A stretch of DNA of 38,038 nucleotides from an uncultured Methanosarcinales archaeon (GTDB taxonomy: Archaea > Nanobdellota > Nanobdellia > Woesearchaeales > CAZYIM01), in contig CAZYIM010000030.1 in NCBI GenBank assembly GCA_964647565.1, forward strand, positions 1-38,038, in the 5' to 3' direction. The stretch's first letter is position 1. Each line of letters begins with the position of its first letter. Positions 1 through 1,219 of the stretch are shown here, piece by piece. The notes under the pieces are model-generated. The model was given only the letters and a program-made list of their open reading frames with translations, searched no databases and was not told the origin of the DNA. A program made the translations under genes and the position numbers.

Positions 1-30
1 AATGGTATCTAACACATTTTCATATATCAT
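1..30 (-). CDS. N-terminus (partial, runs off the window) of a probable cysteine synthase / cystathionine beta-synthase family PLP enzyme
   Basis: ATG at 30 reads MIYENVLDTI..., matching the typical CysK/CysM/CBS start (MIYxxxxxxIGxTP). GGAGG SD at 38-42. Only 10 codons are visible. Confidence 0.65.
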   Translation of the reverse strand, partial: MIYENVLDTI

Positions 31-132
31 TTTTCTTCCTCCAAGTTTTTACGAAGGGTTCTAGAAATTTGTAACTCAGAACCTTCGAATTTTTTTAGAA
101 AAAAATAATATGAGTGGGCCTATGAAAAAGAT

Positions 133-168
133 CTAACAGCAACAGTAATAGCAAATTAGGCCTGTCAT
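133..168 (-). promoter_or_regulatory. Poly-cysteine leader peptide uORF (MTGLICYYCCC*), candidate attenuator
   Basis: ATG ACA GGC CTA ATT TGC TAT TAC TGT TGC TGT TAG on the minus strand. TATA-like TTTATAAA at 191-198 lies 23-30 nt upstream of the ATG. A T7 tract (99-105) and a hairpin (52-87) follow before the downstream SD. Confidence 0.7.
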
Positions 169-214
169 AACCAATAGTAACTCAAACTTATTTATAAATA
201 TTTTCTTTAAATGA

Positions 215-1219
215 CTATTTTTTTTTCAGAACAACGTACAGATCTCCTCTTCTGTTTGGTTGGTCATAGAAAGGGATACCCAACCCTGCCAATCTTAATC
301 TAGCACCAACTTCTGAATTTTTAGGTATAGAAATATTAACTTTCCGCCCATCAGGAATACGCAACTTCTTGGTTGCACCTTTCTTAAGCTCTTTTTCAGA
401 TATAGACAAAAGAGTATAAAGATCATCACCTTTTCTTTCAAAATCTGGGTCTGGACAAGCGTTCATCTTCACATAAAGATTACCTGCTTTTCCTCCTTTG
501 ACATAATGTCCCCAACCCGAAATTCTCAGAACCTGGCCATTCACAACACCAGGTTTCAGTTTAACGTTCAAAGTCTTCTTGACTTTTTTGCTACCATAAC
601 CTTCACAACTGGGACAGGGATCCTTTCCCATCCCATGACAAGGATCACAAACCATTTCCTGAATTATAGCAAAGCCCTGAGCTGTACGGGAATAAGTCCG
701 AAACGCACCTTGCCCGTGACATGGCACACAATCATCCTGAGTATGACCTACGCCCTCGCAATCACCACATTTGGCCCATCTGTTAACACGAACTTTTTTC
801 TCTGTTCCTTTGATAATATCCTCAAGAGTGATCTGTATATGCCCTGTAATATCTCCACCGAGAGCAGCTCTCCGTGATTTCTGTTTGCGACCAAAGAACA
901 CGTCAAATATATCAAAGCCTCCAACGCCCACAGAACTCCAGTCAGTTCTTGACTTCATATCGCGAAATATATCCTCCTGAGAGAATCTGCTCCTGAAACC
1001 ATCTGCACCAAAACTATCATACTGTGCTCTCTTTTTTGAATCAGACAACACCCCATATGCCTCAGAGACCTCTTTGAACTTCTCTTCAGCCACCTTGTCT
1101 CCAGGATTCTTGTCTGGATGATACTTCATAGCAAGCTTACGGTACTTCTTCTTGATATCAGCGTCAGACGCACCTTTATCTACATCCAAAATTGCATAAT
1201 AATCCTTGCCACCCTGCAT
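215..1219 (-). CDS. dnaJ: Chaperone DnaJ (J domain, CxxCxGxG zinc finger, C-terminal domain)
   Basis: DYYAILDV...[10 protein letters not shown] domain with HPD motif, four CxxCxGxG repeats, GDLYV C-terminal motif. Confidence 0.95.

Follow-up and report, generated by a model that had tools for sequence, protein, structure and literature searches.

Organization of the locus

The DNA analysed here, referred to below as the window, is a stretch of 38 038 nucleotides that forms the entire contig C30 (G000:C30:1-38038) of genome G000, which comprises 2.68 Mb in 86 contigs. At one end of it, read on the minus strand, dnaJ is followed by an archaeal promoter, a mini-ORF that ends in Cys codons, a pyrimidine-rich tract with two T-runs, a hairpin and the first codons of cysK, which are cut by the contig end (table 1). 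This arrangement had been interpreted in a preliminary description as a candidate cysteine-sensing attenuator, and all coordinates given there were found to be correct base for base, from the promoter box and the ATG at 168 to the T7 run, the hairpin, the GGAGG sequence and the MIYENVLDTI start.

The stop codon of dnaJ and the TATA box are separated by 17 nt that contain no T-run, and the first T of the box lies 30 nt ahead of the A of the mini-ORF ATG. The Cys codons of the mini-ORF are located at 153-151, 144-142, 141-139 and 138-136, so that four fall among the last six codons and three abut the stop. Cys accounts for 1.34% of residues in the ORFs of at least 200 aa in this genome, in agreement with the Cys-poor proteome described earlier. 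The motif ATCTTTTTCATAGG, which begins directly after the stop, could be reached by a ribosome that stalls at the final codons of the mini-ORF.

The possible stem around the mini-ORF is formed by AUGA (168-165) with UCAU (115-112) and by GGCCUA (162-157) with UAGGCC (122-117). The second of these pairings had been proposed before and is present at the positions named; the hairpin that it forms does not exceed shuffled sequences (z −0.46) and does not belong to the conserved part of the element. Further downstream, the long-range helix hides the cysK Shine–Dalgarno (SD) sequence and start codon and closes over the 87-52 hairpin; the fold of 112-19 has a free energy of −22.6 kcal mol−1 (z −3.9, with 0 of 200 shuffles as good). 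Comparison of window positions 1-400 with Rfam 15 gave five matches, none at the gathering threshold (best 18.6 bits against 78; E at least 4), and no terminator was found in the leader by a scan for the bacterial type.

Table 1. Features of the cysK leader region in the window.
Feature	Position	Strand	Basis or remark
dnaJ, 334 aa, upstream neighbour	215..1219	-	ORF list; Pfam DnaJ, DnaJ_CXXCXGXG, DnaJ_C
Archaeal TATA box TTTATAAA	191..198	-	Sequence; preceded by an A-rich BRE-like stretch
Mini-ORF MTGLICYYCCC with stop TAG, predicted leaderless	133..168	-	ATG 168-166, TAG 135-133
Possible stem enclosing the whole mini-ORF, Cys codons in the loop	112..168	-	MFE and centroid folds
Pyrimidine-rich post-stop motif ATCTTTTTCATAGG	119..132	-	Local form of the family consensus (A)ATTCTTTCATTG
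T5 run ahead of T7, candidate oligo-T termination/pause site	125..129	-	Sequence
T7 run, candidate archaeal oligo-T termination/pause site	99..105	-	Sequence
Long-range helix AUAUUAUUUUUUUCUAA (111-95) / UUGGAGGAAGAAAAAUGAUAU (44-22)	22..111	-	Fold of 112-19
Stable hairpin between T tract and SD	52..87	-	−12.4 kcal mol−1, z −3.2, 0/200 shuffles as good
Shine–Dalgarno GGAGG, 7 nt ahead of cysK ATG	38..42	-	Sequence
cysK, first 10 codons MIYENVLDTI, cut by contig end	1..30	-	ATG at 30-28

Elsewhere in the window, two acidic plus-strand ORFs overlap at their ends (1406-1918 and 1860-2345), and a minus-strand ORF (3016-2342) resembles fibrillarin by eye.

Identity of the downstream gene

A single match to Pfam PALP was found in the genome. 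It lies in a gene that starts at base 2 of contig C26 (G000:C26:2-883) and enters the profile at position 7; the gene is without about 11 residues and its open frame starts KTPIVRLNKLV. A CysK homologue from a Woesearchaeota genome (locus L115) begins MIYENILQTIGDTPLVRINK, and because this start matches, the ends of C30 and C26 fit together as one cysK if two bases are missing. The gene would thus continue from base 1 of the window into C26, a join that we infer from the fit of the two ends. No contig bridges C30 and C26, and the contigs obtained from the four public DNA runs that contain the stretch, at a depth of about 2, stop at positions 27, 123 and 190, with none extending past base 1. 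No RNA run was found to contain the stretch.

The gene on C26 was assigned to NCBIfam TIGR01139, an equivalog family for cysK, with 455.6 bits (cutoff 351), and the earlier expectation of a cysteine synthase was borne out in this way once the matching contig end had been located. The next two genes, one with hexapeptide repeats and one for a class-I tRNA synthetase, were identified as cysE (TIGR01172, 214.4 bits, cutoff 210.7) and cysS (TIGR00435, 353.3 bits, cutoff 340). The assignment of the host to the DPANN archaea was supported by same-order genomes named Candidatus Woesearchaeota, Nanoarchaeota or Nanoarchaeia archaeon.

The genome has a completeness of 87% and is the largest among the listed genomes of its order (others 0.6-2.3 Mb). 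Several of its small contigs have 43-50% G+C compared with about 38% elsewhere, and only 18 tRNAs, with no tRNA-Cys, were called in it by ARAGORN.

Conservation of the Cys-ended mini-ORF

Of the 401 genomes sampled from the same order, 76 were found to have cysK; G131, G207 and G209, which are unpublished, are counted among these and were used for the cysK tally only. Seventy-four loci could be oriented and 73 had a usable start. Mini-ORFs were scored as ATG frames of at most 60 codons with at least three Cys among the last six residues, located within 1200 nt upstream of cysK. By this definition a mini-ORF was present on the same strand upstream of cysK in 44 of the 73 loci, and the remaining 29 loci had no such ORF within 1200 nt. 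The opposite strand had one in 4 of 73 loci, and downstream of the gene neither strand had any (0 of 73). Cys-rich ORFs ahead of orthologues, with variation between TGT and TGC, had been predicted for an attenuator. Neither of two findings that had been named as arguing against one, a downstream gene unrelated to sulfur and a lack of such ORFs at orthologous loci, was obtained.

The 44 loci and the window together made up a family set of 45. As read off the list, 43 of these mini-ORFs end in Cys directly ahead of the stop. Their length varies from 7 to 29 codons, their N-terminal parts are unrelated, Cys is encoded by TGT (142 codons) as well as TGC (43 codons), and all three stop codons occur. 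The feature that has been kept is therefore 'Cys codons, then stop' and not an RNA word.

When all 2.68 Mb of the genome were searched loosely for short frames that open with ATG and have three or more Cys in their final six codons, 61 candidates were obtained, so that the ORF in the window, taken alone, is not beyond chance; it is the place and the conservation of the mini-ORF that lift it above chance. On this comparative evidence the mini-ORF is real and conserved as a class across the order. In other orders of the class, a Cys-rich ORF of the putatively leaderless type was found at one (L131) of the four cysK loci sampled, a number too small for a judgement.

Two relatives, L073 and L076, have a second Cys-containing mini-ORF (MPACCCNKQGNT and MPACCCNMQGNT, respectively), which is located 340-365 nt ahead of cysK and farther upstream than the main leader. 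Their main leaders encode MISDNTACCC and MIPDNTACCC.

Promoter spacing

The archaeal TATA consensus is TTTAWATA, and matches at seven of eight positions or better were counted as TATA boxes. Such a box precedes 41 of the 45 mini-ORFs, and in 31 of these 41 its first T is located at −31 or −30, as in the window; for comparison, a box anywhere in the scanned range was found for 324 of 5520 ATG triplets (5.9%) in the same loci. No SD sequence was found ahead of the family mini-ORF ATGs. A spacing of 30 or 31 nt places the predicted transcription start at the ATG or a few bases from it, so that the ORF would be leaderless.

The post-stop tract

The family consensus for the sequence after the stop is (A)ATTCTTTCATTG, which can likewise be given as (A)ATTCTTTCATTGTTTTAG. 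In 27 of the 45 loci the core CAT[TAC][GA] is found in the first 19 nt past the stop, compared with 803 of 8710 random 19-nt windows (9.2%), and its CAT is mostly located 5-10 nt after the stop. The 30 nt that follow the stop contain 45% T and 10% G, compared with 28% and 20% in random windows. In the first 35 nt past the stop, 27 of 45 loci have a run of at least four T, compared with 22% of random windows; the other 18 have none in this interval. In some members, such as L102-L104, no run of this length occurs between the stop and an embedded tRNA, and oligo-T termination therefore cannot be the whole story.

No local structure was detected after the stop (mean z 0.08 for the post-stop 55 nt, n = 33; mean z 0.14 for the element, n = 45), and mutually exclusive terminator and antiterminator hairpins were not found as a family-wide feature. 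Pairing across the Cys codons, between the codons that precede the Cys run and the post-stop 35 nt, showed a weak excess, with −5.65 kcal mol−1 compared with −4.97 kcal mol−1 after permutation (44 of 5000 permutations as good). Pairing of the mini-ORF AUG with the conserved CAU was rejected: its extension was 0.84 bp, compared with 0.93 bp for shuffled partners (1509 of 2000 as good).

In L038, L008, L062 and L068 the motif, in the form TTCTTTCATTG, has an exact complement, CAATGAAAGAA, just 3′ of an embedded tRNA-Cys. The resulting helix around the tRNA has 10-22 bp and −15 to −20 kcal mol−1, and the complement contains the ATG of a second small ORF (MKE.., MKG.., MKD..).

Genes that follow the leader

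The pattern of a Cys run, a stop and the motif was searched in the 401 genomes, which gave 24 matches in 23 genomes, whereas the reversed pattern gave none. Two of the matches, L086 and L095, were chance occurrences in coding DNA, and six bacterial matches in contig records were without an ATG frame and were likewise dismissed as chance. The leader precedes cysE in L092, L097 and L098, tRNA-Cys and then cysE in L101, and tRNA-Cys, cysE and cysS in L103 and L104. It precedes cysK in L093, a cysK remnant in L107 and unknown ORFs in L091 and L102, while in L089 the contig ends just past the motif. In L099 it is followed by a LAGLIDADG ORF and then by tRNA-Cys and cysS.

ARAGORN called a tRNA-Cys(GCA) in the interval that separates the mini-ORF from the following gene at 13 loci (8 of 24 and 5 of 14 intervals). 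In 12 of them it starts 19-112 nt after the stop, mostly at 19-34 nt, and in the thirteenth, L099, it lies past the intervening ORF. A tRNA at a distance of 19-34 nt is too close to have its own promoter, and these relatives have no room for a second TATA-like box between the stop and the tRNA. Since a tRNA cannot be controlled through an SD sequence, the tRNA-bearing leaders point to control of termination. The leader is not a general feature of tRNA-Cys genes, an idea that was ruled out by its presence at only 3 of 28 sampled tRNA-Cys(GCA) loci; in those three, cysK or cysE comes next. The leader thus goes with cys genes and not with the tRNA as such.

Several of these loci have further peculiarities. 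L008 and L009 look by eye like intron-bearing tRNA-Cys genes; L008 seems to have two non-canonical insertions, and the tRNA of L009 was miscalled as tRNA-Lys, with an incomplete second copy of its 3′ half coming after it. A 30-nt intron was called by ARAGORN in the tRNA-Cys of L074. In L072 and L063 cysK begins 8-15 nt past the tRNA-Cys 3′ end without an SD sequence, so that tRNA processing would leave a nearly leaderless cysK messenger. The ORF between the leader and tRNA-Cys-cysS in L099 (G377:C1) is endonuclease-like by Pfam, and this locus lies about 35 kb from the cysK of that genome. In L107 (G196:C97) an intact leader, MKIKQYCCCC, stands before an apparently collapsed cysK, the remnant of which is a 40-aa frame that joins N- and C-terminal cysK-like pieces.

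A sister family with Phe and Tyr codons

A second type of mini-ORF was found before genes of another pathway. At G000:C7:6771-6854 (+), equivalent to L135:171-254, a frame predicted to be leaderless ends in ...ICFCFYC, 112 nt before a DAHP-synthase-like gene, next to which lies a gene that resembles chorismate mutase by eye. With upstream frames scored for at least four Phe, Tyr or Trp among the last eight residues (related loci L137-L164), such mini-ORFs were found before DAHP-synthase-like genes at 11 of 25 orthologous loci, compared with 2 of 25 on the opposite strand; example endings are ...YFRYFYFYFA and ...VNWFFYF. Most of the listed mini-ORFs have a TATA box at −29 to −35, and a GC-rich hairpin starts 0-3 nt after the stop in this family. 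The design is the same and the codons switch with the pathway, which is the signature of amino-acid-sensing leaders.

Interpretation of the cysK leader

Taken together with the identity of cysK and the recurrence of Cys-ended, apparently leaderless mini-ORFs across the order, these results support the attenuator proposed in the preliminary description. The element is most likely a cysteine-sensing leader peptide, an archaeal form of the bacterial kind. More specifically, we consider it probable that the 11-codon frame in the window is the Cys-tRNA(Cys)-sensing leader peptide of a cysK-cysE-cysS messenger and that it acts by shielding a site of premature termination.

In the mechanism that we propose, transcription would start at the ATG or a few bases off, which would put the mini-ORF at the very 5′ end of the cysK-cysE-cysS messenger. 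Because the Cys run before the stop is the only conserved coding content, the speed with which a ribosome clears the frame is expected to report the supply of Cys-tRNA(Cys). When Cys-tRNA(Cys) is short, the ribosome would wait on the last codons, where it may cover nearly all of the short 5′ RNA together with the first dozen post-stop bases, in which the motif begins. If left bare, the U-rich tract, with the motif (A)ATTCTTTCATTG and oligo-T, could serve as a premature end site, at which oligo-U termination, the factor aCPSF1 (FttA) or a combination of the two might act. Stalling of the ribosome would block this ending, and the polymerase would then read into cysK, cysE and cysS and, in relatives, into tRNA-Cys. 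In this window, the helix that hides the SD sequence and AUG may add translational control.

Control of premature termination is favoured by a post-stop tract that is U-rich, G-poor and unstructured and carries a conserved motif; such a tract suggestively resembles a loading or termination site on single-stranded RNA more than it does a hairpin switch. Transcription and translation are coupled in archaea, and aCPSF1/FttA is an archaeal cleavage and termination factor with a role in termination. Its family, TIGR03675, is encoded in the genome (856 bits). The T tracts of the window could alternatively terminate dnaJ, which itself has no T-run before the TATA box.

An improbable alternative is translational attenuation of the mycobacterial type, in which the leader hides the cysK SD sequence and start, a stalled ribosome opens them, and transcription is not controlled. 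This mode has been proven for Ms5788A (10.1101/834739). With a z of −3.9, the helix of 111-95 with 44-22 over the SD sequence and AUG makes a translational component quite possible in the window, and in the close relatives L026, L031, L035 and L042 the best partner of the post-stop sequence covers the SD sequence or AUG (−15.5, −25.7, −18.3 and −13.1 kcal mol−1, respectively). The 5′ arm of the window helix, however, starts about 12 nt farther downstream than a ribosome at the stop codon would reach, and the helix stacks on the mini-ORF stem and does not compete with it, so that no switch is evident in the window. Corresponding pairings also failed across the family. Hiding of the cysK start region by the post-stop 28 nt, assessed in the 25 of 45 loci that are without a tRNA and have 45-260 nt to cysK, gave −7.81 kcal mol−1 compared with −7.54 kcal mol−1 after permutation (1300 of 5000 as good; median rank 0.31 against random windows). 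Pairing of the Cys tract with the SD region gave −6.26 compared with −6.52 kcal mol−1 (3904 of 5000 as good; median rank 0.375), and pairing of the post-stop motif with any downstream site had a median rank of 0.58. At the level of single loci, pairing of the motif with downstream sequence ranked at 0.05 or better in 3 of 43 loci against random windows and in 8 of 43 against shuffles, and real long helices from the motif are confined to some loci. The conserved CATTG core was explained by none of the four pairing ideas tested across the family. Finally, an SD route is closed to the 12 relatives in which a tRNA comes directly after the leader, which argues against this route as the shared mode.

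It is highly improbable that the frame encodes a functional Cys-rich micropeptide, such as a metal-binding peptide or the precursor of a modified one, that is only co-expressed with cysK. Cys-rich small peptides exist and the ORF is conserved in its promoter-proximal place, but its length (7-29 aa) and sequence are unconserved save for the terminal Cys run, its associates are cysK, cysE, cysS and tRNA-Cys, no modifying enzyme lies nearby, and the sister family has Phe/Tyr in place of Cys precisely where the downstream pathway is a different one. Least credible is a chance frame without any sensing, in which the TATA box simply drives cysK and the T tracts terminate dnaJ, which has no T-run of its own before the box; the 61 loose candidates in the genome would allow it, but the counts of 44 of 73 loci against 4 and 0 in the controls, the fixed spacing of TATA box and ATG and the lack of any reversed-pattern match in 401 genomes do not.

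Beyond the cysK leader with its proposed shielding of premature termination, a wider scheme can be put forward tentatively. Woesearchaeota-type archaea might possess an amino-acid 'ribulon', in which the sensing codons of a leaderless mini-ORF abut the stop and a bare U-rich tract follows, aCPSF1/FttA ends those transcripts that are free of ribosomes, and the mini-ORF doubles in many members as the 5′ leader of pre-tRNA-Cys. If true, this would be an archaeal counterpart of Rho-dependent attenuation, and the synthesis of a tRNA, of the synthetase that charges it and of the amino acid that it carries would be set by the efficiency with which this same tRNA serves to decode its own leader.

Relation to known systems

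The classical leader-peptide attenuators of bacteria are represented by trpL, hisL, pheL, thrL and leuL. As in these, the short ORF of the archaeal element is enriched in codons for the product of the pathway, conservation is limited to these codons, and parallel families occur for different amino acids, here Cys and Phe/Tyr. It differs from them in that no terminator/antiterminator pair was detected (mean z about 0), the sensing codons abut the stop, the ORF is predicted to be leaderless, and the polymerase and termination machinery are archaeal. T-box riboswitches read the charging of a tRNA, not the free amino acid, and bind the tRNA directly, without an ORF. Reading of tRNA charging and joint control of an aminoacyl-tRNA synthetase and biosynthesis genes are predicted here as well; unlike a T-box, the leader described here has an ORF and matches no Rfam family at threshold. 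To our knowledge, ribosome-mediated attenuation has never been demonstrated in archaea, the link of a leader peptide to a tRNA gene is without precedent, and switches of this type have so far been published only for bacteria. A full-text search of the literature found no archaeal leader-peptide attenuator.

The closest parallels are found in actinobacteria. Mycobacterial poly-Cys leaderless ORFs, comprising Ms5788A and five further loci that form a 'Cys ribulon', act by unmasking an SD sequence, as proven by Canestrari et al. (10.1101/834739). The resemblance extends to a short ORF that opens the transcript without a leader and has Cys codons in succession at its 3′ end, a position before cysteine-metabolism operons, several loci per lineage and sensing by ribosome pausing on Cys codons; for the archaeal element, the lack of a leader and the mode of sensing are predictions. 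Here, by contrast, the promoter is of the archaeal TATA type and there is no homology. The mycobacterial Cys tract pairs with the downstream SD sequence for translational control, a pairing that is unsupported here, whereas the archaeal leaders have an unstructured U-rich post-stop tract with its own conserved motif and can include cysS and tRNA-Cys in the unit.

In the predicted actinobacterial Cys leaders of Seliverstov et al. (2005, PMC1262725), Cys runs likewise lie near the stop, no conserved terminator hairpin is present and Rho was proposed to act. The logic of factor-dependent termination on ribosome-free RNA is the one favoured here, with aCPSF1/FttA in place of Rho. Those leaders are bacterial and in part have a 5′ UTR, and no link between them and a tRNA gene is reported; aCPSF1/FttA bears no relation to Rho.

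Dozens of natural variants of this very small and sharply bounded element, in which a promoter is followed by 7-29 codons and a 25-nt tract, are available in the family. Transfer to a tractable archaeon would permit work on the control of termination by ribosomes, on aCPSF1/FttA as an analogue of Rho and on leaderless sensing. Those DPANN archaea that have retained cysteine synthesis are predicted to regulate it, and mini-genes that are unannotated and overlooked by gene callers are flagged by the present lists.

The element was also present in the records CAZSRD010000020.1, CAZHVK010000003.1 and CAZOOV010000004.1, at least two of which come from genomes of the window's order. The title 'uncultured Methanosarcinales archaeon' that these three records bear is probably not their lineage.
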